From: a plasmid
Sequence record: NZ_CP088248.1
Strand: one strand, 5' to 3'
Length of the DNA stretch: 52,774 nt
Shown: in pieces, positions 1 to 52,774 of the stretch
Layout of the letters: the number at the start of each line of letters is the position of its first letter
Position numbering within the stretch: the first letter of the stretch is position 1
Made by a program: the position numbers and the translations under genes
Notes under the pieces: generated by a model
Told to the model about the DNA's origin: nothing
What the model saw: the letters and a program-made list of their open reading frames with translations, nothing else
The model's database searches: none

Positions 1-200
1 ATCTTTTTGTGATCGACGCTCGTGAACCACTCACGCCAGAGATAGCCCCATTGGCCGTACCAAGTGACGGCGCCAACGAGAGCCAAGCCGCCCAGCGCAA
101 CAGCTGCAAAGGTCACGAGCAGGATCGGCTCATGATAGGGGATAGCTTCGAGCGTCAGGCGCCCGAAGACAAGCTGCTGGAGATCGATGTTCGAGAACAT
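1..200 (-). CDS. cyoB: Cytochrome bo3 ubiquinol oxidase subunit I, N-terminal 66 codons (ATG at 200..198). The frame continues across the window junction into 52774..50971.
   Basis: Reverse-strand translation gives [66 protein letters not shown](I). This aligns with the E. coli CyoB N-terminus. The stop of cyoA lies 24 nt upstream. Confidence 0.85.
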
Positions 201-223
201 GGGAATGCCCGTATCGGTCGATG

Positions 224-1402
224 CTAGCGGCCCTGGGGGGGCGCAGTGTTGAGCTGGGCCGGCGCAGGTGTCCGGTCGGCGCCCGGCAGGGCGTTGCCCT
301 GGCCCTGATCAGGCTCGGTTTTTGGCTTGTTGACCCCGTCCCGGCTCAGGGTCTGGTCGCGGGGATCCATGCCTTCCGGCTGGACTGAGCCTTGCGGCGG
401 ACGACCCGAGGCCGGGAAGGTGGCGCCCGAAGGCTCGGTGCCGGACTCCAGGCGACGGTTGTCGTAGTCGAGCCGCTTGCGGTTCTCTTCGCTGGCTCGC
501 CCCCCACCTCCAGCTCGGTCGATCTGGTGCATCTCGGTGACGCACATCAGGCCGGGTTCGGGGCACATGCCAAGGATGACGTCATAGATGCCGGCCTGCA
601 CGCTGCTGAAGAACCGAACCGGATCAGCCTCGCTCGGCTTCTCAAGCGCCAGGTAAGCCTCGCGGTTGAGGTTTGTGCCGGACGCTTTGGCCTTCGCAAC
701 CCACTCGTCGAAGCCTGCGGCCGGCAGGCTGCGGAAGCCGAAGTTCATCCGGGAGAACCCGGGTCCGCTGTAGTGAGCCGATAGCCCCCGAAACGTTCCT
801 TCCTTGTTCATGACAGCGTGGAGCTTCGTCTCCATGCCGGGCATGGCGTAGATCATACCGGCGAGCGCTGGGACGTAGAACGTGTTCCAGACAGAGGACG
901 ACGTGATCCTGAACGTGATCGGCCGGTCGACCGGCGCCGCCATCTCGTTGACGCTTGCAACCCCGTACTCGGGGTAGATGAACAGCCATTTCCAATCGAG
1001 GGCGACGACCTGCACCTCGAGTGGCTTGGTGTCGGCCGGGATCGGGCGGTTAGGGCCGAGGCGCGACAACGGCTTGAATGGGTCGAGTGTGTGTGTGGAG
1101 ATCCAGGTGATCGCGCCGAGTGCCATGATGATCAACAGCGGCACCGTCCAGATCACAACCTCGAGCTGGGTCGAGTGGTGCCAATCCGGATCGTAGGTCG
1201 CGTCTGGGTTCGAGGCACGATACCGGCGCGCGAAGATGAAGGTGAGCGCAATCACCGGCACAATCACCAGCAGCATGAGCGCGGTGGACACGATAATGAG
1301 GTTGCGCTGCTGTGTTGCGATGTCCCCGGACGGGTTCATGACAACCATGTTGCACCCGGCCAGCAGACTAGAGGCGGCTAGCACGGCTAGGCTTCGCAGC
1401 AT
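224..1402 (-). CDS. cyoA: Cytochrome bo3 ubiquinol oxidase subunit II (lipoprotein signal peptide, CyoA/COX2-like fold, C-terminal low-complexity tail)
   Basis: Strong similarity to E. coli CyoA throughout ([18 protein letters not shown] signal peptide with lipobox, [34 protein letters not shown]). The start was moved to the ATG at 1402, immediately before the signal peptide. The 1540 start would add 46 non-conserved residues. Confidence 0.9.
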
Positions 1403-1543: not shown

Positions 1544-2887
1544 TCAGACCTGCCGGATTTCTGAGCGCGAGCTGCCAAGCGCCAGCAAGGTCGTGATTGC
1601 ACCGGACAGCAGGTACAGACCCACGCAGGCGAGGCCGTAGCGGGCTGACAGAAACAGCACGATCAGGGGAGCGAACCCCGCTCCCAGCAGCCAAGCCAGG
1701 TCGCTTGTGAGAGCCGCTCCGGTGTAGCGGAAGCGCTGTTCAAGCCGGGACGTGACCGCTCCGGAGGACTGGCCGTAGGACAGCCCAAGCAGGGCAAAAC
1801 CCGCGTTGACATAGATCGTCTGCCCAATCGCGTTCTCTTCGACGAGCAGCGGCGCGATGATGCTGCCGAGAGCGAAGACCGCGATCAGGCCTGCCGTGAT
1901 CATCAGCAGCATGCGGCGACCGATCTGATCGGCGATGAGCCCAGAGGCCATGACCGCACCCGCGCAGATAAAGGCGCCCGAGCACTGGATCATGAGAAAC
2001 TCGCCCGGCGAGCGCTCTGTGAAGAGGTTGATCCAGCTGATCGGGAACACGGTCACGAGATGAAACAGGGCAAAGCTCGCCAGCGGTATCAGCGCGCCGA
2101 TGAGAAGCTCTCGTGAGTGGTTGCGGATCAGCGGGATGATGGGCGAAGGCTCAAGCCGCCGCTGCTCAAGGAGGCGGGAAAACTCGTCCGTCGCAACGAG
2201 CCGCAGGCGTGAGAACAAAGCCACAACATTGACGGCAAAGGCGCAGAAGAAGGGGTAACGCCAGCCCCAATCCAAAAACTCGCCATCTGTCAGGTTGAGC
2301 AGGAGGTATGAGAACATGACGGCGGCCACGATGAAGCCGAACGGCGCACCGAGCTGAGGGATAGCTGCATAGAAGCCGCGTCGTTCGATGGGCGCATTCA
2401 GCGCTAGCAGCGAGGCAAGGCCGTCCCAGGCGCCACCCAGCGCCAGGCCCTGCCCAATCCGCAGTCCAGCCAAGAGGTAAAGCGACCAAACCCCGATCTG
2501 CGCGTAGCCGGGCAGGAAGGAGATCGCCATCGTAGAAAAGCCGAGCAGAAACAGCGCCGTGGTTAGCTTTACGCCCCGGCCATGCCGACGATCGATGGCT
2601 GTGAAGACGGCTGTTCCAAGGGGCCTCGCGATGAAGGCGAGCGCGAAAATCGCGAAGGAATAAAGCGTTGCGGTCAGGGGCTCCAAAAAAGGCAGGAACA
2701 CCTTTGGAAACACCACCACAGATGCAATCGCGAACACAAAGAAATCGAAATACTCTGCCGTCCGGCCGATAATCACGCCGATCGCAATCTCACTAGGTGC
2801 GACCTTGTGATCAGTGTTCGCTAAACGGGCGTCGCGCTCCAGCGGATTGGAGGATGGATAAGGCCCTTCAACGTGATCGATCGCCAT
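1544..2887 (-). CDS. MFS transporter, metabolite:H+ symporter (MHS) family (ProP/KgtP-like)
   Basis: Twelve TM-like hydrophobic segments. The EYFDFFVFAIASVVVFPKVF motif aligns with ProP EWFDFGVYGFVAYALGKVF. Start placed at the internal ATG (MAIDHVEG...), which gives a ProP-like N-terminal length. Confidence 0.8.
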   Translation of the reverse strand: MAIDHVEGPYPSSNPLERDARLANTDHKVAPSEIAIGVIIGRTAEYFDFFVFAIASVVVFPKVFLPFLEPLTATLYSFAIFALAFIARPLGTAVFTAIDRRHGRGVKLTTALFLLGFSTMAISFLPGYAQIGVWSLYLLAGLRIGQGLALGGAWDGLASLLALNAPIERRGFYAAIPQLGAPFGFIVAAVMFSYLLLNLTDGEFLDWGWRYPFFCAFAVNVVALFSRLRLVATDEFSRLLEQRRLEPSPIIPLIRNHSRELLIGALIPLASFALFHLVTVFPISWINLFTERSPGEFLMIQCSGAFICAGAVMASGLIADQIGRRMLLMITAGLIAVFALGSIIAPLLVEENAIGQTIYVNAGFALLGLSYGQSSGAVTSRLEQRFRYTGAALTSDLAWLLGAGFAPLIVLFLSARYGLACVGLYLLSGAITTLLALGSSRSEIRQV

Positions 2888-3307
2888 CCGAAGTGTAGCC
2901 TGGGATAAGGGTTTCTTAGGGAATTTCGTCCAGAAACTGATTGCGCGCATAGGAGCGCACAGTGGCGTTCGCAGACGTGATGGAGCGGATGTCTATCCTT
3001 CGGCCTGATCTGCTCTTGCTGATGTTCGGCCTGCTTGGTGCGCTATCTTGCCGAGCGTGAACAGATGGCCGCCGTATCAACGGTAGTGTTCTGATGCAGC
3101 AAGCATGGTGATCCCCCTTAATCTGGCACCATGATCCTGCGAGCCAATGCGCGCATTGATCTGAGTCAAACGGGGCGGAAAACCTGCTGTTAGAGCAGCA
3201 GTTTCGGGGCAGCCAACCGCAAGCCGGCAGCGCGGCAGGCCTGCTCACCCACCTCATGCTGCCTTGCCAGTGCGGCGTAGCGCTTCTTCACAAAGATTGT
3301 TTTTTGG

Positions 3308-4063
3308 CTACCCGCCTTCGCTGATCGCCAGAAGACCCGGTCGATCCTGGAGAGTGACCGATCTTGCCGTCTTGTAGTCGATGAGCCCCTTCCGGCGCAG
3401 CCTTGTGAAGACACGGCTCACGGTCTCGATGGTCAGACCAAGATAGTCGGCGATGTCAGAGCGCGTCATCGGCAGCTCGAGATCCTTGCTAGAGCCCCCC
3501 AGCCGTTGAGATGCTTCCGCTCGCGCCAGGAGGAAGCGGGCAACCCGCTCGTCCGCCGTCAGACGGCCAAGCAGAGTCATGTGCTCCTGACCAGCTGCAA
3601 CCTCGTCAGATGCTACAGCGAGGAGACGACGCTCGAGCTTTGGATAGGTCTCCAGGAGGACGCGGAACTTGCCGCGCTCAAACCGGCACAGCCGAACGTT
3701 CGTAAGGGCTTCGGCACTGCAGGGCACGGCATCAGGGCGGCCAAAACCGATGAAATCGCCCACCGTCAGGAACCCAATGACCGCGCGACGACCATCAGCC
3801 AGGAGCTTGAACAGTTTCACCGACCCCGAGATGATGTTGAACAGGTACTCCGGTGAAGCACCCTCGTTCCGGAAGACCTCACCTGGCGCGAGCTCGACCA
3901 CCGTGGTTGCCCGGGCCAGTTCGCTGAGCTGATCCTCCTCGATTGCGTTGCAGATGCTGACTGCACGAGCTTCGCAGAGCCCACAGCGCTCAACGCCACA
4001 CCCCTGACCGCGCTCGATGCGAGCGCACGGTTCGGCTTTTGTGCCAGGAGGAACGGTGGTCAC
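3308..4063 (-). CDS. FNR-type (Crp/Fnr family) transcriptional regulator with N-terminal Cys cluster (probable O2-sensing [4Fe-4S] type)
   Basis: cNMP-binding-like domain plus C-terminal HTH (SRVFTRLRRKGLI). N-terminal CARIERGQGCGVERCGLC cysteine cluster as in FNR/FnrN. The GTG at 4063, preceded by AGGAA, gives 251 aa. The long-frame start at 4246 would add 61 non-conserved residues. Confidence 0.75.
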   Translation of the reverse strand: MTTVPPGTKAEPCARIERGQGCGVERCGLCEARAVSICNAIEEDQLSELARATTVVELAPGEVFRNEGASPEYLFNIISGSVKLFKLLADGRRAVIGFLTVGDFIGFGRPDAVPCSAEALTNVRLCRFERGKFRVLLETYPKLERRLLAVASDEVAAGQEHMTLLGRLTADERVARFLLARAEASQRLGGSSKDLELPMTRSDIADYLGLTIETVSRVFTRLRRKGLIDYKTARSVTLQDRPGLLAISEGG

Positions 4064-14195: not shown

Positions 14196-14342
14196 CCTTG
14201 GGGCGCACACCGGAAGCTGCCCTGCTGGCTGTAAGGAGGGCTGCAGTTCGTGAGATGACTCTCGTCGAGCTTCTAGGAAAGTGGCACCGTTGGGATCGGG
14301 GGCAGCTTTTGTGGTCAGCAGCCCCCACGCAGAGCGCAGCTC

Positions 14343-15140
14343 TTAACGCGAGCGGCATTTGCCCGTGCGCGTGCGCTCACGGTCACCGTCATCGTAGTCA
14401 ATGTTCAGCATATCACCGTTCAATGATGTGATGCGACCTGAATGCCAAGTTCCACTGCCCTTCCAGTTGCACTCGATCCGCGTACCAACAGACCACGTGT
14501 AAGAGCGGACGCGGCTGACGTGCGCGGTTTCTCGATCGCCGTCATCATAACGGATGGTCACTGTAGCGCGTGCGGCACTCTCGACGATGCCAGGGTACCA
14601 ATGCTCGCCGTTCCGCCATCTGCCGAGAACCCAGTCGCCAGGCCGGTATGGCTCGCTTACAGGTTCAAATTCAGCCTGCCGATTTGGCACACGCGGTACA
14701 TATTGAGGCGCACCCGTGTCACTTTCAAGCCTAAGTCTATCGTTCAGGACGTTGATTACTGCAAGTCCGCAGAAGTTGACCGGTTCTTCGATAACCCTCT
14801 CGTTTGACATGCCGCGGGAGCCAAAATCAATGATGACACGGGCTGTCATCATGCAATTCGAGGGGCGGTCGGCATTGAATGCGAGGTTCCGGCCCCCTCG
14901 CCCTGGGATCGGTATCTTTAGCCAGTTCTCACTCCAGCGCCTGCCAGGTGCCAGAACACGGAAGTCGATGATTGCACCAGGCGTGTGGTTAGTGACCACA
15001 AAGCGCTTATCGGCGACAGTCTGTGCTTGAACGGGCTGAACCAGTGCAGATGTAATTCCACATCCTGCGAAGACCGCTGCCCCTGACAATCTGATTAATG
15101 GCGCCACTATGCCCCGCCGACAAGTGCCGAGACTGCCCAT
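14343..15140 (-). CDS. Secreted protein with two tandem Tudor/SH3-like barrel repeats
   Basis: Signal-peptide-like N-terminus. Two C-terminal repeats (PGDWVLGRWRNGEHWYPGIVESA...VTIRYDDGDRETAHVSRV and TRIECNWKGSGTWHSGRITSL...LNIDYDDGDRERTRT) follow the Tudor/agenet pattern W..G..W..DG.WY.G.I....v.Y.DG..E.v. Confidence 0.6.
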   Translation of the reverse strand: MGSLGTCRRGIVAPLIRLSGAAVFAGCGITSALVQPVQAQTVADKRFVVTNHTPGAIIDFRVLAPGRRWSENWLKIPIPGRGGRNLAFNADRPSNCMMTARVIIDFGSRGMSNERVIEEPVNFCGLAVINVLNDRLRLESDTGAPQYVPRVPNRQAEFEPVSEPYRPGDWVLGRWRNGEHWYPGIVESAARATVTIRYDDGDRETAHVSRVRSYTWSVGTRIECNWKGSGTWHSGRITSLNGDMLNIDYDDGDRERTRTGKCRSR

Positions 15141-20120: not shown

Positions 20121-20297
20121 CTACCTGGGCTGTGGTGTGCCCACGCACTTGAAGTACAAGCTATGCCGTACACGCAACGTCGCAAACCCTTCGAAGGGGG
20201 TTGCCTTGTGCGACGCACCATCTAATTTTGGATTATGCGCAACCGCGATGGCGTCGCGGTCATGCTGCTCTTCTTGAGCGTTTCCTCCCAAGACTTC

Positions 20298-20330
20298 GGG
20301 CCGTCCCCTCACCGGGGCGGCCTTTTTTGT
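20298..20330 (+). terminator. Intrinsic terminator (GC hairpin plus T6)
   Basis: GGGCCGTCCCC-TCACC-GGGGCGGCC followed by TTTTTT. Confidence 0.55.
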
Positions 20331-20709
20331 GTCTTGTAAGTGATCATCTATCCATCTCCGCCGAGCGCAGCAAGCAAGATTTTTCTTAAACGGCCTTCAC
20401 CCATGTGGAATTTTTTATCCAGTTTGAACTTGGCAGCAAAAAACTGGCGATTTGACCGAGCGCGGCAGCGTTCAGCGATCATAGACTGAAGGCACGTACG
20501 GCTGCGGCCAGAGCAGCAAGTCCGCCAAGGGCGACAGCCGAAATCAGCCGGGCACGCGCCCAGGGCCTGAAAGGATTATCGTTACAGGGCTTTGGCGCGC
20601 GACCGGGCCACCTCCGCCATTTACGCTCCGCATTATGAGCATCGAGCATGGCCTGAAGACCTTGCCTATCAGGCTGAAGGAGGCATGACATGAATGACGT
20701 CCTTGGCGG

Positions 20710-25479: not shown

Positions 25480-26475
25480 ATGAAGAAGGCCCTGGTTGTC
25501 GGGATTGACGACTACCATTCCGCACCTTTGCAAGGGTGCGTGAACGATGCATCTTCCGTAGCGCAGCTTCTCGAGCGCAATGGTGACGGTTCCCCGAACT
25601 TCTCCGTCAGGCTGCTCACCAGTGACAAGCTTGAGGTCAATGCACAGGTTCTGCTGCAGGCCATCACTGAGCTTTTCAGCGGCGATGCCGATACGGCTCT
25701 GCTGTTTTTTGCTGGGCATGGGATCATCAACCCGGAAACGAATGCCGGCTATATCGTCAGTCAGGACGGGCGGAAGCCCAGTTGGGGAGTCACGCTATCT
25801 GACATCCTCCATCTGGCCAACCAAGCGTACCCGCGCGTGAAGTCGAGCGTGATCATCCTAGACAGCTGTCAATCCGGCTATGCTGGTGAAATCCAAGGAC
25901 TTGGTTCGGCAGCGAACCAACCGTCGGTGATCGGTAACGGAGTAACAATCCTGACCGCTTCACATCGGGAGGGTACTGCCGCCGAAGAGGATGGGCATGG
26001 ACTCTTCACTAGCATCCTCCTTGATGGTTTGAGCGGTAGCTCGGCTGATGTAATCGGCCGGATTACGCCGGCATCCGTGTACTCCCATATCGATCAGACG
26101 CTTGGGCCTTGGAAACAGCGTCCTGTTTACAAGGCGAACGTGCAAACCTTTGTAACGCTACGCAATGTGGCTCCAAAGATCCCCCACGAGGTGCTGCGAC
26201 GACTGCCAGAGTACTTTCCAGACCCGGCGCACGTGTTTCAACTGGATCCATCCTACGAGCCTGACCGTGAGAATGTGCCGGAGCGCGTTAAGCACATCCC
26301 GGTCGACGAAGATCACAAGCGTATCTTCAAGGAGCTACAGCTTTGTAATCGGCATGGTCTCATCGTGCCCGTCGATGCTGAGCACATGTACTATGCTGCG
26401 ATAGACTCCAAAGGATGTCGTCTTTCTGCGCTTGGTGCCCACTACAGAAAGCTCGCGATCCTTGGGCGTATATAG
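25480..26475 (+). CDS. Caspase-like (peptidase C14/metacaspase family) protein with an uncharacterised C-terminal domain
   Basis: KKALVVGIDDYHSAPLQGCVNDASSVAQLL...LLFFAGHGI...IILDSCQSG gives the His (AGHG) and Cys (DSCQSG) catalytic dyad context of caspase/metacaspase. Confidence 0.8.
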   Translation: MKKALVVGIDDYHSAPLQGCVNDASSVAQLLERNGDGSPNFSVRLLTSDKLEVNAQVLLQAITELFSGDADTALLFFAGHGIINPETNAGYIVSQDGRKPSWGVTLSDILHLANQAYPRVKSSVIILDSCQSGYAGEIQGLGSAANQPSVIGNGVTILTASHREGTAAEEDGHGLFTSILLDGLSGSSADVIGRITPASVYSHIDQTLGPWKQRPVYKANVQTFVTLRNVAPKIPHEVLRRLPEYFPDPAHVFQLDPSYEPDRENVPERVKHIPVDEDHKRIFKELQLCNRHGLIVPVDAEHMYYAAIDSKGCRLSALGAHYRKLAILGRI

Positions 26476-27749: not shown

Positions 27750-28412
27750 ATGATCATCGGGGTGCTCAACCAGAAAGGCGGAGTCGGTAAAACGACCCTC
27801 GCCACCAACCTGGCGGCGGTCATCGCCAAGGCCGGCTACCGTGTGCTGCTGGTCGACGCCGACCCGCAGGGCAGCTCTATGGCTTGGTCGTCCGTGCGCG
27901 AGGCCGAGCCGCTGTTCCCGGTGATCAGCATGGCCAAGCCAACCCTGCACCGCGACCTGCCGGAGATCGCGGCCGACTACGATGTGGTGATTATCGACGG
28001 CGCACCCAGGGTCAACGACCTCGGCCGCGCTGCGATCCTGGCCAGCGATGTGGTGCTCATGCCGGTGCAGCCGTCGCCCTACGACGTATGGGCCTCGGCC
28101 GACACGGTGCAACTGGTCAAGGAGGCCCAGCAGTTTAAGGAAAACATCAAACCCGTTTTTGTGGTGAACCGCAAAATCGTAAATACGGCGATCGGGCGCG
28201 ATGTGCATAATGCCCTGTCCCAGTTCGAATTTCCGATCCTGCCGGTGGAGATTTGCCAGCGCGTCGGCTTCGCCGAGAGCGCCAGCCAAGGCATGTCCGT
28301 GATCGAGACGGACCCCAAGAGCGATGCCGCACAGGAAATCAGCCAGCTGGCCGCCCAGCTTGTCGACATGAAAGCCAAACCCAAGACCAAGAAGGAAAGG
28401 AAGGCCGCATGA
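27750..28412 (+). CDS. parA: ParA family partition ATPase (small type Ib)
   Basis: Deviant Walker A KGGVGKTT, and VLLVDADPQGS. Confidence 0.9.
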   Translation: MIIGVLNQKGGVGKTTLATNLAAVIAKAGYRVLLVDADPQGSSMAWSSVREAEPLFPVISMAKPTLHRDLPEIAADYDVVIIDGAPRVNDLGRAAILASDVVLMPVQPSPYDVWASADTVQLVKEAQQFKENIKPVFVVNRKIVNTAIGRDVHNALSQFEFPILPVEICQRVGFAESASQGMSVIETDPKSDAAQEISQLAAQLVDMKAKPKTKKERKAA

Positions 28413-28714
28413 GCAAGGGAGCCAAGCAGGTCTCGTTCAAGGTGCCCGCATCCAAGCTGGCGCCGGCTGCCGACGCCTGGATCGCCAACCGCGGTGCCGA
28501 GCCCACGACTACGGATAGGGAAGGGGGCTCCGTGACCGCCCTCAAGGCTGTTGAAGCCGCTCCGGCGCCGGAGCCGAAGGAGAAGATGTCCCGCTTCACC
28601 ATCGACGTGCCGGAAAGCCTGCACCGCCGTGTGAAGATGCAGTGCGCGGCACGCGGTCAGAAGATGGCCGACATGATGCGGGATCTGCTCGAGCGCGAGT
28701 TCCCGACATCGTAA
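28409..28714 (+). CDS. Ribbon-helix-helix (ParG/CopG-like) partner protein of ParA
   Basis: C-terminal RHH (SRFTIDVPESLHRRVKMQCAARGQKMADMMRDLLERE). ATG at 28409 overlaps the parA stop (ATGA). The longer 28253 frame is an artefact. Confidence 0.7.
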   Translation: MSKGAKQVSFKVPASKLAPAADAWIANRGAEPTTTDREGGSVTALKAVEAAPAPEPKEKMSRFTIDVPESLHRRVKMQCAARGQKMADMMRDLLEREFPTS

Positions 28715-28765
28715 ATCCGCTGATGCAGAATTCCGCTTTTACGATCTTCCGGAAATCCTGGTGTG
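28708..28765. repeat. Motif cluster between parG-like and repA: ATCGTAAATCCGCTGATGCAGAATTCCGCTTTTACGATCTTCCGGAAATCC
   Basis: Contains both orientations of the (T)ACGAT core plus TGCAGAA and CCGGAAATCC, all shared with copies at 22341..22547 and 27337..27358. Confidence 0.5.
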
Positions 28766-29995
28766 AGTGATCCCGTCCGTCTCGACCTGATGCCCCTCGA
28801 CGCGTTCGGGGCCCTCGGGCTGCATGAGAAGAACGCCTACCTGCAGGCGCTGGCGGACACGTTCTGCGCCAGGACCGGCCGCGAGACCCTTGTCCTCAAC
28901 AAGGACGCGCTGAGCCGCCTCCGGCGCTTCTACAGCCGGCGCAGCCTGGCTGACCTCAAGGTCGGGCCTGAGCCGACAGACCCGATCGGCATCGCCCTCA
29001 AAGCGCTCGGTGATGCGGTCAAGCTCAACGAGCGCCAACCCGATATCGTCGGCGCGCTGGTCTCTGAGCTGCCGGCGCCGGTGATGCGTGAGGCGCCCGA
29101 CGACGACGCCCAGCTCGCGTTCTTCGTGCCCAACATCTACGACGCGCCGCTCAAGGACGACGTCAACCTGATGGATGTCGCGCCATTCTCGCTCGGCAAG
29201 GCCAAGCGGGAAGGGGTCATCCGTTACGAGCTGAAGGACTGCATCATCACGATCGATGGCAGCGCCTCAGCCGGCCTCGCCACCGTGTTCGACTACGACA
29301 TCTTCCTGCACATGGTTTCGAGCCTCGCCGATGAGGCCAACCGGTACCGCCGAGCGTTGGAGAAAGGACTTCGTATCGATGTACCGGCGCGGGTCTACCG
29401 ACCTAATGCTGCGCACATCCTCAAGTTCTGCCGTCGCTCCAACGGCGGCAAACAGTACAAGGACCTCGAGGCCGCGCTGGACCGACTCAAGGGCACCAGC
29501 GTCAAGGTGGTCAATCTCGGCAACGGCAATCGCCGTGAGATGATCTCGATGTCGCTGATCCAGGACTACCGGACAGTCAGCCGCACCACGACAGGCAACG
29601 TCGACCAGGTCGAAATCGAGATCCCCGATTGGGTCTACGATGGCGTGGTGCGCCAGAAGGGAAACCCGCAGATCCTGACCTTGAACGCCGACTACTTCCT
29701 GATTTCACAGGGGCTTGGCCGCTACCTTTATCGGCTGTCCAAGCGTGCTGCCGGCAAAACCGTCGCCCGCTACGGAATGACCGAAATCCACAAGCGCAGC
29801 GGCTCCAAACAAGCTCTGCCGCAGTTTGCCCATCAGGTGCGCAAATTCGTTGAAAGCACCAAGATCGCGCCGTTGCCCGAATACGACCTAGAGATCATCC
29901 CCGGCAAACGCGAAGACGTGCTTATCATGCGGGCGCGCGGCACCGAAACCTTGCACGCAGGTGCCGTGGTCGCCCCCGAGCTTCCGTTCGACTGA
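28763..29995 (+). CDS. repA: Plasmid replication initiator RepA (Replication initiator protein A/RPA family)
   Basis: FFVPNIYDAPLKDDVNLMDVAPFSLGKAKREGVIRYELKDCIITIDGSASAGLATVFDYDIFLHMVSSL matches the RPA-family N-terminal domain. GTG start. Iteron-containing oriV lies immediately downstream. Confidence 0.8.
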   Translation: MSDPVRLDLMPLDAFGALGLHEKNAYLQALADTFCARTGRETLVLNKDALSRLRRFYSRRSLADLKVGPEPTDPIGIALKALGDAVKLNERQPDIVGALVSELPAPVMREAPDDDAQLAFFVPNIYDAPLKDDVNLMDVAPFSLGKAKREGVIRYELKDCIITIDGSASAGLATVFDYDIFLHMVSSLADEANRYRRALEKGLRIDVPARVYRPNAAHILKFCRRSNGGKQYKDLEAALDRLKGTSVKVVNLGNGNRREMISMSLIQDYRTVSRTTTGNVDQVEIEIPDWVYDGVVRQKGNPQILTLNADYFLISQGLGRYLYRLSKRAAGKTVARYGMTEIHKRSGSKQALPQFAHQVRKFVESTKIAPLPEYDLEIIPGKREDVLIMRARGTETLHAGAVVAPELPFD

Positions 29996-30019
29996 CTCCG
30001 TTTTTGTCAGCGATTTTTG

Positions 30020-30330
30020 TCAAAACCGTACTTCGCCAATCGGGGCAGCAGCGGGCCGAAGGCCACAGCCGCGCTGTGGATAATTCTTGTCAATGCCGTA
30101 CTTCATCAACCAAAAACCGTACATCATAAATGTCAAACCGTACTTCGCCTATGACAAGCCGTACATCATAAATCTGAGGGCCGTACTTCGCCAATCAAGG
30201 ATGGCCTCAAGTCACTGATTTTAACCAATGTTTTTTGTCAGAGGGGCAGGTCGCTAATGCCTAAAACTCTTAAAGTCTTTTAAAACACTCTAAAACACCG
30301 GTTCTGTGGATAACTTCGGGGTTGCACCGT
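30020..30330. other. oriV: six iterons, two perfect DnaA boxes (TGTGGATAA at 30075..30083 and 30305..30313) and an AT-rich stretch (30200..30300)
   Basis: Read directly. See the iteron feature. DnaA box TTATCCACA on the reverse strand, twice. Confidence 0.8.
30026..30195 (+). repeat. Iterons, core CCGTAC(T/A)TC(G/A)(C/T)C(A/T)A(T/A), six copies. Starts at 30026, 30096, 30117, 30138, 30159, 30181, each preceded by GTCAA(A/T). The last four are tandem at 21-22-bp spacing.
   Basis: CCGTACTTCGCCAAT, CCGTACTTCATCAAC, CCGTACATCATAAAT, CCGTACTTCGCCTAT, CCGTACATCATAAAT, CCGTACTTCGCCAAT. Confidence 0.85.
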
Positions 30331-30758
30331 TACGAAAACTGGTGCAGCAGCCCGATTCGACCTATCTGGCAAATCCAGTGCAACGGAAAGCCCGCCCCTT
30401 TTTGGCTCCGCCAAAAACCCGCTCCCCCACCCAATGCGGAAGCCGCCTCCGGCGGCTGATTCCAAAATGGGTCCTCCTAACGGCGAACAAGAGGGGCTGC
30501 CGGGACTGTGGGTGGCAGATCGACCTCAGTGGCCCCTGGAGACGTTTTGGGCTGCTCAGCCGACAGAGAGCGGCAAGAGGCTTGAAAAACCCGCTACAGC
30601 CCTCCTGAGAGGCTTTGTCCCGCGCCTTGCGCGGGGAGGATGATGGTGCGGTCGCTCTGCGACCGCTGAACCAGCCTGACTCGAGATGGAGGAAGCTGGA
30701 GACATCGGCGCAGGACCGGACCAGGGGGCCCATGTTCTGGCAGCCGGTTTTGTCAAAA

Positions 30759-30773
30759 CCGTACATCATCAAT
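30759..30773 (+). repeat. Distal seventh iteron CCGTACATCATCAAT (preceded by TTTTGTCAAAA)
   Basis: Same core, about 560 bp from the array. Confidence 0.6.
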
Positions 30774-30984
30774 GCGCTTGGCCGATAGGTTGGGGAGGTC
30801 AGACCAACCAACCGGGTGCCACCTAAGGTTCTACATGGGCGCCCGCAAAATCGTATTTCTGTAAATCCGATTTGCAGGATTTGCAGAATTATGTGTGCGA
30901 GATGGCTAATGGGGTAGAGGTTGAGCGGTGCCGATTGGCCGCTAAGGACCATACGCGCGTGCGGTAATCACGGATGGCGTGGAT

Positions 30985-31221
30985 ATAATGGCATCAACGG
31001 TGACAGCCATCCCACAGGTGAAATGGCTGCCGATCCCTTCACGGTCATCGCCATCCCTGGCTGTACCGTGAGATCATGCTGACACAAAAAACCGATCCCT
31101 TCGAGAAAATCCTAGCGGGGGTACGGGGGCCGGTAATGAGGCCCCCGCGCGCGTAGCGCGTGGAAAGGCTCGCGCCGTAGGCGCGACCGCATCGCCCCGC
31201 GCAGCGGGGCGATCGTTTTTT
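30985..31221 (+). ncRNA. Candidate small structured RNA: TATAAT-like -10 (30985..30990), three consecutive GC hairpins, the last an intrinsic terminator
   Basis: Hairpins GGGGGCC-N9-GGCCCCC (31124..31146), TCGCGCC-GTA-GGCGCGA (31170..31186), ATCGCCCCGC-GCA-GCGGGGCGAT plus T6 (31191..31221). No convincing ORF on this strand. Confidence 0.3.
31191..31221 (+). terminator. Intrinsic terminator (10-bp perfect stem, 3-nt loop, T6)
   Basis: ATCGCCCCGC GCA GCGGGGCGAT CG TTTTTT. Confidence 0.6.
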
Positions 31222-31576
31222 AGGGCGTGAAACCAACGGCGCCCGTGAAACCGCAGTAACCCCCTGCAGTGTCCGTCCACACCTGCACGGCAACCATGCC
31301 GCCGATTCCGCCGAAGATCAGGCCCACTCCGGTCGGCCGCGTCCACGGGAAAATGGCGAGGAAGACTCCAAGCACCATCAACAGCTGGCTCAGCCCCGGC
31401 CCGAGGCTGTTGATGATCGGGTGCCCAATCGAGCAGGCGAGCCAACGCGGGACCCCGGTGTCGAACCCGAGCCAGTGCAGTCCGGCAACCGTACCCCCAG
31501 CGATCACAAACAGGGCCAAGCCACTGACCAGATCATCGTCGAGGGAACGGCTGCGCATGAGGTGAGCCTTCTGCAT
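31220..31576 (-). CDS. Small membrane protein (3 TM), divergent from the relaxase gene
   Basis: Hydrophobic helices (LALFVIAGGTVAGL, LLMVLGVFLAIF, LIFGGIGGMVAV). Confidence 0.45.
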   Translation of the reverse strand: MQKAHLMRSRSLDDDLVSGLALFVIAGGTVAGLHWLGFDTGVPRWLACSIGHPIINSLGPGLSQLLMVLGVFLAIFPWTRPTGVGLIFGGIGGMVAVQVWTDTAGGYCGFTGAVGFTP

Positions 31577-50970: not shown

Positions 50971-52774
50971 TCAGACCCGTCCCACCAGTTGCGCCGCTCT
51001 CTGGGCTTCGAGCCGGTTCACTTCCGCGGCCGGGATATAGAAGCTCGTGTGGTAGTTGAACGTGTGCCTGATCGAGACCGCAATCAGGGCAATGAGCGAC
51101 AGGGCGGCGAGCCACCACACGTACCAGACCAAGGCAAACCCAAGCACAGTGCTCAGAGCGGCCAGTGTCATGCCCATCGCCGTGTTGCAGGGCATGTGAA
51201 TGGGTCTGAAGCCTCCTGCTGGCCGCTCATGGCCGCGCTTCTTCATGTCCCACCAGGCGTCGAGATCGTGCACCACGGGTGTGAACGCGAAGTTGTAGGG
51301 GGGTGGGGGTGAGGAGGTGGACCACTCAAGCGTCCGTCCACCCCAGGGATCACCGGTAAGGTCACGCAGCTGCTCGCGTCGCAGGATGCTCACGAGAAGC
51401 TGCACGACAAAGGCCAGGATGCCAGCCATGATGATGAAGGCGCCGAACGCCGCAACCATCAGGTAGGGCTGCACCGACGGATCGTCGAAATGCTGGGTCC
51501 GACGCGTCTCGCCCATTAGACCGAGGGCATAGATCGGCGTGAACACGACCCAGAAGCCAACCAGCCAGCACCAGAAGCTGACCTTTCCCCAGAAGGGGTC
51601 GAGACGGAAGCCGAAGGCTTTCGGGAACCAGTACTGCACGCCGGCGAGCAGCCCGAACACGACGCCGCCGATGATGACGTTGTGGAAATGCGCAACCAGG
51701 AACAGGCTGTTGTGGAGGACAAAGTCGGCCGGCGGCACGGCAAGCAGCACGCCGGTCAGGCCACCCAGCACGAAGGTCGGGATGAAACCCATGACCCAAA
51801 TGAAGGGGCCCTCGAAGCGGATCTTGCCCCGGTACATGGTGAACAGCCAGTTGAACACCTTGGCCCCGGTCGGGATCGAGATGATCATGGTCGTGATGCC
51901 GAAGAAGGCGTTGACGTTGGCGCCGGCACCCATCGTGAAGAAGTGGTGGAGCCAGGTCAGCCATGACACGAGCGCGATGACAGCGGTGGCGTAGACCATC
52001 GACGTATAGCCAAACAGCCGCTTTCCGCAGAACGTCGAGACGATCTCCGAGTAGATGCCGAAGGCAGGTAGGACGAGTACGTAAACCTCCGGATGCCCCC
52101 AGATCCAGATGAGGTTCATGTACAGCATCGAGTTGCCGCCGTAATCGTTCGTGAAGAAGTGTGTCCCCACGTAACGATCACAGGCCAGAAGAGCCAACGT
52201 GGCGGTCAGAACCGGAAAAATCGTGACGATGATTGCATTGCTAGCGAGCGTGGTCCAGCAGAACACCGGCAGCTTCATCATAGTCATGCCGGGCGCGCGC
52301 ATCTTCACGATGGTCGCGATCAAATTGATCGCAGACAGCGTCGTGCCGACGCCGGCGATCTGTAGGCTCCAGATGTAGTAATCGACACCGACGCCCGGGC
52401 TGTAGGCTGCTCCGGAGAGCGGCGGGTAGGCAAGCCAACCCGTACGGGCAAACTCGCCCACAAACAGCGACAGCATCGTCAGGATGGCGCCGCCTGCCGT
52501 CATCCAGAAGCTGAAGTTGTTGAGAAATGGAAAGGCCACATCGCGCGCTCCGATCTGGAGCGGCATGATGTAATTCATCACCCCGGTCACGAATGGCATC
52601 GCCATGAAGAAGATCATGATCGTGCCGTGGGCGGTGAAGATCTGATCGTAGTGATGCGGTGGCAGGTAACCCTGTGCCTCTCCGACCGAGAGAGCCTTTT
52701 GTGTGACCATCATGATTGCGTCGGCAAAGCCGCGCAGCAGCATTACGATGGCGAGGATGATGTACATGATGCCG
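50971..52774 (-). CDS. cyoB: Cytochrome bo3 ubiquinol oxidase subunit I, C-terminal 601 codons. Continues from 200..1 across the window junction.
   Basis: Heme-copper oxidase subunit I with CyoB-specific stretches ([29 protein letters not shown]). The reading frame enters from the right edge with ...GIMYII. Confidence 0.9.

Follow-up and report, generated by a model that had tools for sequence, protein, structure and literature searches.

Comparative analysis of a probable iteron-type replication origin with an embedded structured module in a Methylobacteriaceae-type plasmid

In the classical models, a plasmid origin combines iterons that are specific for the Rep protein with generic host sites, such as DnaA or IHF boxes and an AT-rich stretch. 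The RPA-family RepA replicons of Alphaproteobacteria (the "RepA-type" of Hyphomicrobiales and Rhodobacterales) use the same initiator family as the locus described here, which lies downstream of repA in the plasmid record NZ_CP088248.1. The whole stretch of 52,774 nucleotides, hereafter the window, was analyzed. Its closest relatives are plasmids of Methylobacterium and Methylorubrum, two genera of methylotrophs that are important as production hosts. From sequence comparisons, positions 30015-30773 are probably the origin of vegetative replication (oriV) of a circular 52.8-kb plasmid of Methylobacteriaceae type, which would replicate in the theta mode under iteron control. Very probably, the core of this iteron-type oriV, used by the RepA encoded upstream, is 30015-30313, and a distal iteron would be an accessory RepA site. 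A structured module embedded in these origins makes them a variant of the classical design, and this module is apparently an undescribed element.

The iteron pattern CCGTACWTCRYMWA was searched in the window by a pattern scan. Seven exact matches were detected, all on the plus strand, and one additional match appeared at one mismatch (Table 1). By chance, 0.14 matches were expected, and eight were reached in none of 100 shuffles. The start-to-start distances are 70, 21, 21, 21, 22, and 578 bp. Thus, six iterons are contained in 170 bp, the first of them 31 bp past the repA stop codon, and five are phased at 21-22 bp. A previous sequence-only reading of this DNA had listed six iterons and a distal seventh at 30759, and both the number and the distal copy were recovered as exact matches. 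The same reading had counted four tandem copies, each preceded by GTCAA(A/T). Since the spacing is 21, 21, 21, and 22 bp, the tandem copies are five, and GTCAA or GACAA precedes just three or four of the seven iterons. In a periodicity scan, the iteron array was the only 21-bp periodic array in the window. More than three phased direct repeats in the range of about 17-22 bp, as in iteron-type theta origins, adjoin the rep gene.

Two perfect DnaA boxes (TTATCCACA) bracket the array and the AT-rich stretch. They are the only exact matches in the 52,774 bp, where 0.07 were expected and two were reached in 0 of 100 shuffles; the sequence-only reading had reported the same two boxes. It had also described a 65%-AT stretch after the iterons. 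The stretch is present and flanks the iterons, but the measured content is 60.4% AT for 30200-30300 and 62.8% for 30215-30300, whereas the whole window is 38% AT (62% GC). Four repeats of the form (C/T)TAAA(A/G)(C/G), phased at about 10 bp, were found in it at positions 30261, 30270, 30280, and 30290. The repeats CCTAAAAC, TTAAAAC, and CTAAAAC are kept in all relatives examined, including those with RepA identities of 57-68%. The AT-rich stretch is the probable site of DNA unwinding, as judged from its composition and conservation.

For comparison, contigs carrying RepA homologues with 62-89% identity were fetched, and further relatives at 57-61% were included. In the plasmids pMPPM03, pMRAD05, and CBMB27-p3 (L001-L003) and in a Methylobacterium sp. 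2A contig (L013), the spacing of one plus five iterons is identical to that in the window. With RepA identities of 80-89% (L142, L143, and L145), the cores are at +31, +101, +122, +143, +164, and +186 from the repA stop, as in the window, and with 67-68% (L146 and L149) they are a few bases off these offsets. The contig L147 (RepA 62%) is exceptional, having matching repeats about 1.5 kb past repA, beyond an intervening gene. The relatives from Peteryoungia (Rhizobiaceae), Ancylobacter (Xanthobacteraceae), and Bradyrhizobium, with RepA identities of 57-61%, carry five tandem copies of the core CCGTA(C/T)ATCGCC spaced by about 21 bp; their AT-rich block contains TAAAAC four or five times, at intervals of about 10 bp. 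An equivalent of DnaA box 1 with zero or one mismatch was found at about +86 to +97 in L001-L003, L142-L146, and L149, in many of them near +88; in L146 and L149, the box between iteron 1 and the array is perfect and doubled. When the relatives were aligned, iteron 1 was invariant, and no non-coding columns were better conserved than those of the iterons, DnaA box 1, and the AT-rich repeats. Such deep positional conservation in non-coding DNA is strong evidence of function.

RepA was compared with the RPA family. It matched PF10134 with 205.9 bits (cut-off 27) over profile positions 1-228 of 228, and the iterons begin directly 3′ of its gene, as had been proposed from the sequence. There are 632 RepA homologues at E <= 1e-10, and tblastn gave matches in 1083 PLSDB plasmids. 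A sequence search against the PDB gave no match, and no NCBIfam match was obtained for RepA or for the other Rep proteins compared. An AlphaFold2 model of RepA was built from 39 homologues with moderate confidence (predicted local distance difference test score, pLDDT, 67). In Foldseek, the sole matches of the model at E <= 0.01 were domains 2-3 of RctB (E = 1.4e-7) and RepE of mini-F. Both of these are dual winged-helix, iteron-binding initiators. The RepA model thus resembles the winged-helix Rep class, and RPA is listed among winged-helix initiator domains in a preprint (bioRxiv 10.1101/2024.09.03.610885). No second rep gene was found among the large open reading frames (ORFs) of the window that were scanned.

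We also examined which gene the iterons accompany. In the Peteryoungia and Ancylobacter plasmids (L137 and L138), the iterons directly follow repA despite a ParA that is 26% identical to that of the window. These plasmids also have an unrelated partner protein for ParA and divergent par genes. Origins with other Rep proteins have the same layout with unrelated iterons, namely CGGCCCCAAATTT (p2META1-type), CGTGGTATCACCTGCA (an M. indicum contig), and ACGCATACTCTGTCACCG (a metagenomic contig). Since L137 and L138 keep the iterons with such a distant ParA and rearranged par genes, the iteron sequence, by these comparisons, follows RepA and not the par genes. The assignment as an iteron-type oriV is supported by the iterons, the box, and the AT block conserved down to 57% RepA identity, by this co-variation with Rep, by the likeness of the RepA model to iteron-binding initiators, and by the detection of a sole rep gene among the ORFs scanned and a sole array in what appears to be a complete circular replicon.

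From the analogous systems of RepE in mini-F, TrfA in RK2, and RctB, we infer the following order of events. RepA monomers would bind the six proximal iterons of about 21 bp, one isolated and five phased at two helical turns, and host DnaA would bind the boxes at 30075 and 30305. RepA and DnaA together may then melt the AT-rich stretch with its four phased TAAAAC repeats, where the host helicase could be loaded. The distal iteron at 30759 would be an optional extra RepA site. After the models of incC of F and incA of P1, it is reasonable to suppose that it may take part in copy control by pairing with the array (handcuffing), a role that the sequence-only reading had also suggested.

Several observations weigh against parts of this assignment. 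The position of DnaA box 2 is kept in the relatives, but its sequence is degenerate (TTATCCACT, TTCTCCACT, and TTATCCGCC), and in the Peteryoungia, Ancylobacter, and Bradyrhizobium relatives (L137, L138, and L148) no DnaA box was detected at one mismatch or fewer. Because of these two results, the dependence on DnaA may vary among the relatives. For the distal iteron, whose offset from the repA stop is +764 in the window, L142 has a counterpart at +768 and L001 (pMPPM03) a two-mismatch copy, but it is missing from L002, L003 (pMRAD05 and CBMB27-p3), L143, and L145. Since it is absent from these four, it is clearly, on sequence comparison, an accessory feature and not essential to the family. 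In addition, our literature search found no publication on these origins, on the experimental characterization of close relatives, or describing the module.

The sequence-only reading had taken the interval before the distal iteron as plain distance, and the module was not seen there. Some 450 bp separate the array from the distal iteron, and this interval is not a spacer but includes a structured element of about 285 bp, which among relatives is conserved to the same degree as the iterons. In total, 24 copies of the module were obtained, 20 by nhmmer and four in the RepA-homologue contigs. Ten PLSDB plasmids contain the module, and each of these comes from Methylobacterium or Methylorubrum. 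When one genome per species was searched by pattern, only seven plasmid-sized Methylobacteriaceae contigs were hit, and a metagenome scan added three copies. All copies are on Methylobacterium or Methylorubrum plasmids or on unassigned metagenome contigs. Use of the most divergent copies as queries, together with the metagenome scan, did not extend the host range beyond Methylobacteriaceae.

The position of the module was then compared between origins. Every copy with a known upstream flank is downstream of a rep gene in a par-rep module and in the same orientation. Most copies start 75-95 bp past a DnaA-like box at the AT-rich edge, and this was seen with four Rep types. The module lies 80-370 bp from the AT-rich stretch, and its orientation is fixed. 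The module accompanies at least three Rep families: RPA (two clades, 32% identical), RepA_C (PF04796), and a 337-residue Rep that has neither a Pfam or NCBIfam match nor similarity to RepA. The p2META1-type origins have inverted iterons, two or three in number, at 70-220 bp past the module, much as the window has its distal iteron there. Since iterons are on both sides in these origins and in the window, the module is enclosed by Rep-specific sites in two unrelated systems. The module was missing in relatives of both Rep families from outside the Methylobacteriaceae clades, namely in those from Peteryoungia, Ancylobacter, Bradyrhizobium, Aureimonas, and Roseomonas and in two metagenomic contigs. 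In contig 25 of Methylorubrum suomiense DSM 14458 (L012, 5172-5649), the module and the AT-rich stretch are 97% identical to those of the window. This contig departs from the window at about module position 252, where the last two hairpins are replaced, and since it stops inside the iteron array, the assembly probably broke at the repeats.

The right side of the module differs with the distal iteron. In the RPA relatives without the distal iteron (L002, L003, L143, and L145), a convergent DUF1810 gene was found 150-300 bp to the right of the module, whereas this gene is missing at that place in the carriers (the window, L001, and L142). In L006 and L008, where the Rep is of the other type, the module is likewise followed by DUF1810. 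At its right edge, the module has the look of a recombination junction.

A protein of about 337 residues annotated as "hypothetical" (L004, 2312-3325, in p2META1 of M. extorquens AM1) was observed in the p2META1-type plasmids, with homologues in L005-L011, L015, L016, and L066. Its gene occupies the rep position after parA and the ribbon-helix-helix (RHH) gene, and an iteron origin of its own lies downstream. The CGGCCCCAAATTT copies there are four dispersed, four tandem, and two or three inverted, with one more inverted copy upstream of the gene. The protein is encoded in 19 PLSDB plasmids, including those of Roseomonas, Aureimonas, and Skermanella. From its position and repeats, it is probably an unrecognized Rep family.

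To assess the structure of the module, 52 predicted pairs were analyzed in an alignment of 15 sequences, and the same pairs with partners slid by 1-3 columns were used as controls. Standard pairs made up 93.6% of the cells, compared with 39-51% when the partners were slid. Pairs changed on both sides numbered 16, against 4-11 in the slid controls, and the covariation score was 0.256, against 0.107 or less. The observed values were reached in no shuffle. At least six helices are conserved with compensatory changes, and a long-range pairing is predicted. Hairpin 1 occurs in five sequences, all of which pair: TTTTTGGC/GCCAAAAA, TTTTCGC/GCGAAAA, TTTTTCC/GGAAAAA, TGGCGC/GCGCCA, and TCGCGC/GCGCGA. 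Its flanks, CGCCCC and CCCGCTCCCCCACCCAA, are nearly invariant. Thermodynamic stability was considered as evidence of structure and set aside. Since the z-scores are weak in this GC-rich sequence, we relied on covariation.

The two strands of the module were also compared. The G-rich minus strand folds better by about 10 kcal/mol in 12 of 13 copies, and the consensus fold is -62 versus -50 kcal/mol. Wobble (G-U) pairs favor the minus strand by 91 to 19 overall and by 27 to 14 in the local hairpins. On the minus strand, the invariant tract consists of TTGGGTGGGGGAGCGGG, a hairpin, and GGGGCGGG, with five G tracts. With a G4Hunter peak of magnitude 1.8, this tract ranks with the few highest-scoring sites of the window. 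The GC skew is -0.44 at 30370-30429, where the plus strand is C-rich and G-poor. These fold comparisons are suggestive of a module that acts on the G-rich minus strand, and the assignment is tentative.

As our best guess, with a chance somewhat below even, the module may be a cis-acting element that works as a single strand, either as a priming or replisome-assembly signal or as an R-loop or G-quadruplex segment; this proposal follows from the analogies given below. When single-stranded on the G-rich minus strand, it would serve as a signal for the fork that leaves the unwound region, and the minus strand would be the one copied as synthesis proceeds outward from the AT-rich stretch. It is possible, if doubtful, that the module is an undescribed origin component that is specific to the host family, independent of Rep, and active as single-stranded DNA or nascent RNA in priming or loading the replisome. 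The same idea may be put as an interchangeable "host adaptor" acquired or kept by plasmids with unrelated initiators (RPA, RepA_C, and the Pfam-less Rep), and in this form too we regard it as a doubtful possibility.

Some results count against such a role. The choice of strand is suggestive only, because the structure in which the G-U pairs were counted was derived from the minus strand itself. A strict quadruplex motif (four tracts of three or more G, loops of 1-7 nt) is absent from the tract, and its five tracts of three or more G count as a quadruplex motif only if the covarying hairpin of 19-22 nt is taken as one loop. Thermodynamically, the RNA z-scores (-1.3 and -1.5) are weak, and the one with DNA parameters (-2.8) is moderate. 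At 285 nt and with at least seven helices, the module is also much bigger and more elaborate than the known single-strand initiation (ssi) signals and G-sites, which have 40-140 nt, and it shares no sequence similarity with them.

The module might instead be a gene for a structured non-coding RNA, acting as a trans regulator, an antisense RNA, or a primer-like RNA, that is lodged beside origins. The helices with compensatory changes (at least six) fit an RNA, and the invariant single-stranded tract, C-rich on the plus and G-rich on the minus strand, is as in seed or hybrid-forming segments. The boundaries of the module are sharp and cassette-like, and in several relatives the DUF1810 gene reads toward it on the minus strand. 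Nevertheless, in a scan of 29900-31300 for sigma-70-type consensus promoters only and for intrinsic terminators, no promoter-like or terminator-like site was detected at the module ends. The flanks are not conserved between Rep types, and no promoter or terminator shared between them was seen by eye, so that the signs of a free-standing small RNA (sRNA) gene were not found. No match to an Rfam 15 covariance model was obtained in the region at gathering thresholds, and a permissive scan (E <= 5) gave three eukaryotic small nucleolar RNA or microRNA matches, all outside the module and none significant. The scan for tRNA and tmRNA found none. Moreover, an RNA acting in trans could lie at any distance from the AT-rich stretch and the DnaA box and in either orientation, and it would not need a place inside the iteron-bounded region, which is seen in two Rep families. 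Only a single copy is present per plasmid, and none was found outside plasmid-sized contigs. An RNA gene is unlikely, although it is the most probable of these other explanations.

An insulator or terminator of transcription, for example a Rho-dependent site on the C-rich plus strand that shields the origin from transcription of par-rep or neighboring genes, is improbable. The C-rich, G-poor tract with its negative skew is of the kind expected, and in several plasmids the module lies between the origin and convergent neighbor genes. However, no hairpin followed by a T run was detected inside the module by the scan, the long-range pairing and the invariant 17-nt tract would be needless, and relatives in other host families have no module.

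Slightly less probable again is a duplex protein-binding site unrelated to initiation, either for multimer resolution (cer- or res-like) or a pSC101-type gyrase or par site, which the plasmids would have in common because it is bound by host proteins. Such a site could be specific to the host family and independent of the Rep type, as the module is. The size is akin to that of cer/psi and pSC101 par, and recombinase genes are near the module in some plasmids. In hairpin 1, though, pairing is kept in five sequences while the bases change, and several other stems are also compensatory. Because of these changes, selection would be on a single-stranded fold and not on a duplex. In addition, no dif-like AT-rich core was seen by eye.

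A separate repeat family was detected in the window. The motif AAATCGTA occurs in seven copies versus 0.3 expected, and CGKAAATCC in five versus 0.7. They cluster upstream of parA, in the 94%-conserved intergenic region between the RHH gene and repA, and at 30848, just past the distal iteron, where the motif, AAAATCGTATTTCT, is conserved in four relatives. From their distribution, these motifs are probably partition or global-regulator operator sites, separate from the iterons. AAAATCGTATTTCTG at 30848 was considered as an eighth degenerate iteron and was rejected, since it belongs to the AAATCGTA family, which has members at other sites too, including the region upstream of parA. The two-mismatch match at 28702, considered as an iteron-like operator ahead of repA, was rejected as well, because relatives do not keep it as an iteron. 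That the CCGTAC repeats themselves are the centromere or operator of the ParA/ParG-like system, with the real origin elsewhere, is very improbable: they share a gene cluster with parA and the RHH gene, and type Ib centromeres are likewise short direct-repeat arrays, but the Peteryoungia and Ancylobacter plasmids keep them after repA with a 26%-identical ParA, an unrelated partner, and divergent par genes, the AAATCGTA and CGKAAATCC motifs are better candidates for par or regulator sites, and the DnaA boxes and the conserved phased AT-rich block adjoin the array.

Other identities of the module were tried and rejected. A protein-coding module was excluded: since 1-2-nt indels are scattered through the homologues, the module is non-coding, the ATG of the 69-codon ORF in the window is not conserved, and the overlapping ORFs have no Pfam match. 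A miniature inverted-repeat transposable element or another dispersed repeat does not fit one copy per plasmid, one in the window, and a genome collection that gives only plasmid-sized Methylobacteriaceae contigs. An origin of transfer does not fit either, as relaxases of the MOBF, MOBP, and MOBQ types are all represented among the plasmids that carry the module, and some encode no relaxase. Met2624, an sRNA described as "specific to Methylobacteriaceae" (bioRxiv 10.1101/2022.01.24.477521), was also set aside; plasmids are not mentioned in that source.

Table 1. Positions of the features discussed (window numbering unless another record is named)
Feature	Position	Strand	Basis or remark
parA, partition ATPase, first gene of the par-rep module	27750..28412	+	Pfam AAA_31, CbiA, ParA
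Small RHH protein, ParG-like ParA partner	28409..28714	+	Weak ParG/RHH Pfam matches, E 8e-4 to 9e-3
repA, RPA-family (PF10134) replication initiator	28763..29995	+	Pfam RPA, E = 8e-61
Iteron 1 with TTTTGTCAAAA prefix	30015..30041; core 30026-30039	+	Exact pattern match; 70 bp ahead of array
DnaA box 1, perfect TTATCCACA	30075..30083	-	Between iteron 1 and array
Five tandem iterons	30096..30195; cores 30096, 30117, 30138, 30159, 30181	+	Pattern match; spacing 21, 21, 21, 22 bp
AT-rich stretch, probable unwinding element	30197..30304	.	AT content; repeats conserved in relatives
DnaA box 2, perfect TTATCCACA	30305..30313	-	Distal edge of AT-rich stretch
Structured module, about 285 bp	30391..30675	- (tentative)	nhmmer copies, conserved pairing; plus strand: CCCGCCCC, covarying hairpin, CCCGCTCCCCCACCCAA
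G-tract oligonucleotide of the module			TTGGGTGGGGGAGCGGGTTTTTGGCGGAGCCAAAAAGGGGCGGG
Distal iteron 7, TTTTGTCAAAA prefix as in iteron 1	30745..30773; core 30759-30772	+	Exact match; +764 from repA stop
AAATCGTA motif	21326, 22351, 27577, 27708, 28174, 30848, 35263		Over-represented motif
CGKAAATCC motif	27338, 27712, 28710, 28750, 32372		Over-represented motif
Module in p2META1 (NC_012809.1)	2740-3025		M. extorquens AM1
Module in p2METDI (NC_012989.1)	14315-14600		Strain DM4

The par-rep region of the window has about 79% nucleotide identity to those of pMPPM03, pMRAD05, and CBMB27-p3. With M. populi pMPPM03, its ParA shares 97% identity, and the RHH protein is 95% identical to the one encoded at the same position there. 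When the ends of the window (1-300 and 50971-52774) were joined, a 703-codon frame for cytochrome oxidase subunit I (COX1/cyoB) closed, immediately following the subunit II gene at 224-1540 on the minus strand. Since the joined ends close this reading frame, the window appears to be a complete, circularly permuted replicon of 52,774 bp. Its other contents include a gene for a type IV coupling protein, copies of IS21, and accessory genes.

Several further features were observed in the window. A full-length mmgR/suhB sRNA (Rfam RF00519, 68.8 bits versus a gathering threshold of 41) is at 20260-20337 on the plus strand of this plasmid; this sRNA is normally chromosomal in Alphaproteobacteria. A gene for a caspase (Peptidase_C14)/CHAT-domain protein is at 25480-26475 (plus strand), 1.3 kb upstream of parA. 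Since the corresponding place in related plasmids is occupied by Abi, TIR, CBASS-like (DncV/SAVED), and toxin-antitoxin genes, the region adjoining the par-rep module seems, by gene content, to be a defense-gene hotspot. At 31037-31070, a non-coding-looking sequence, CCTTCACGGTCATCGCCATCCCTGGCTGTACCGT, is common to the Ancylobacter polymorphus plasmid pE (L138, about 3905-3945), where it is a few hundred bp past the pE origin. The DNA around it was not alignable by eye, and it includes ATCCCTG, which loosely recalls MOBP-type nick sites. A strong hairpin resembling an intrinsic terminator, with 10 pairs (eight G-C) followed by TTTTTT, is at 31191-31213 on the plus strand, about 400 bp beyond the origin region.

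Among known systems, ColE1 RNA II and the mitochondrial conserved sequence block II (CSB II) use a G-rich transcript that forms a persistent hybrid and primes DNA synthesis. Like them, the module has a cluster of invariant G tracts on one strand adjoining the unwinding region, and the likeness is one of analogy only. Unlike them, it has no promoter that we could find and is accompanied by a Rep protein and iterons. Since these are present, an RNA primer is not required.

The G-site of R1 and R100 and the ssi signals are cis-acting, strand-specific stem-loops that work as single-stranded DNA near the origin, and the R1 G-site is a few hundred bp downstream of oriR. To our knowledge, the primosome of Alphaproteobacteria is poorly known, and these bacteria are without DnaC and most of the E. 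coli primosome proteins. The ssiA and ssiB signals of RSF1010 are 40-nt inverted repeats within oriV (PMC8567376). The module is like an ssi signal or a G-site in its fixed orientation and distance and in its conserved hairpins with compensatory changes. If its role is in priming, loading, or R-loop formation, it would represent a new kind of host-range determinant and would offer a handle on replisome assembly at plasmid origins in Alphaproteobacteria.

In the RK2 oriV, DnaA boxes lie upstream of a cluster of five iterons, further iterons are isolated or distal, and the array is followed by an AT-rich region containing short repeats and then by a GC-rich segment. The order of DnaA box, iterons, AT-rich stretch, and GC-rich module is the same in RK2/RP4 and in the window. 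The two differ in the initiator (TrfA versus RPA) and in the iterons, which are 17 bp in RK2 versus about 21-22 bp here. We know of no report of the RK2 GC-rich segment as a covarying structured element common to several Rep families.

Mini-F ori2/incC with RepE, P1 oriR/incA, and V. cholerae chromosome 2 ori2 with RctB are also close in design. RepE and RctB domains 2-3 resemble the RepA model, and no sequence similarity of RepA to solved structures was detected. In the mini-F, P1, and RctB systems, the initiator is titrated or handcuffed by iterons that lie beyond the minimal origin. The incC and incA loci have 5-9 iterons, whereas there is one distal iteron here, and it is not conserved through the family.

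By itself, the origin is an ordinary but unusually well-preserved iteron origin. The precise comparative map of repA, six iterons, two DnaA boxes, and the phased AT block would be usable for small Methylobacterium and Methylorubrum vectors. The RPA relatives from Peteryoungia, Ancylobacter, Bradyrhizobium, and metagenomes share the same layout 3′ of repA, with the CCGTA(C/T) core, one plus five iterons, and TAAAAC repeats. The Methylobacteriaceae subclade differs from them in the 285-bp module after the AT-rich stretch and, in the window, L142, and L001, also in the distal iteron. With the module, these origins depart from the classical model in that a large structured element tracks the host family and not the initiator.

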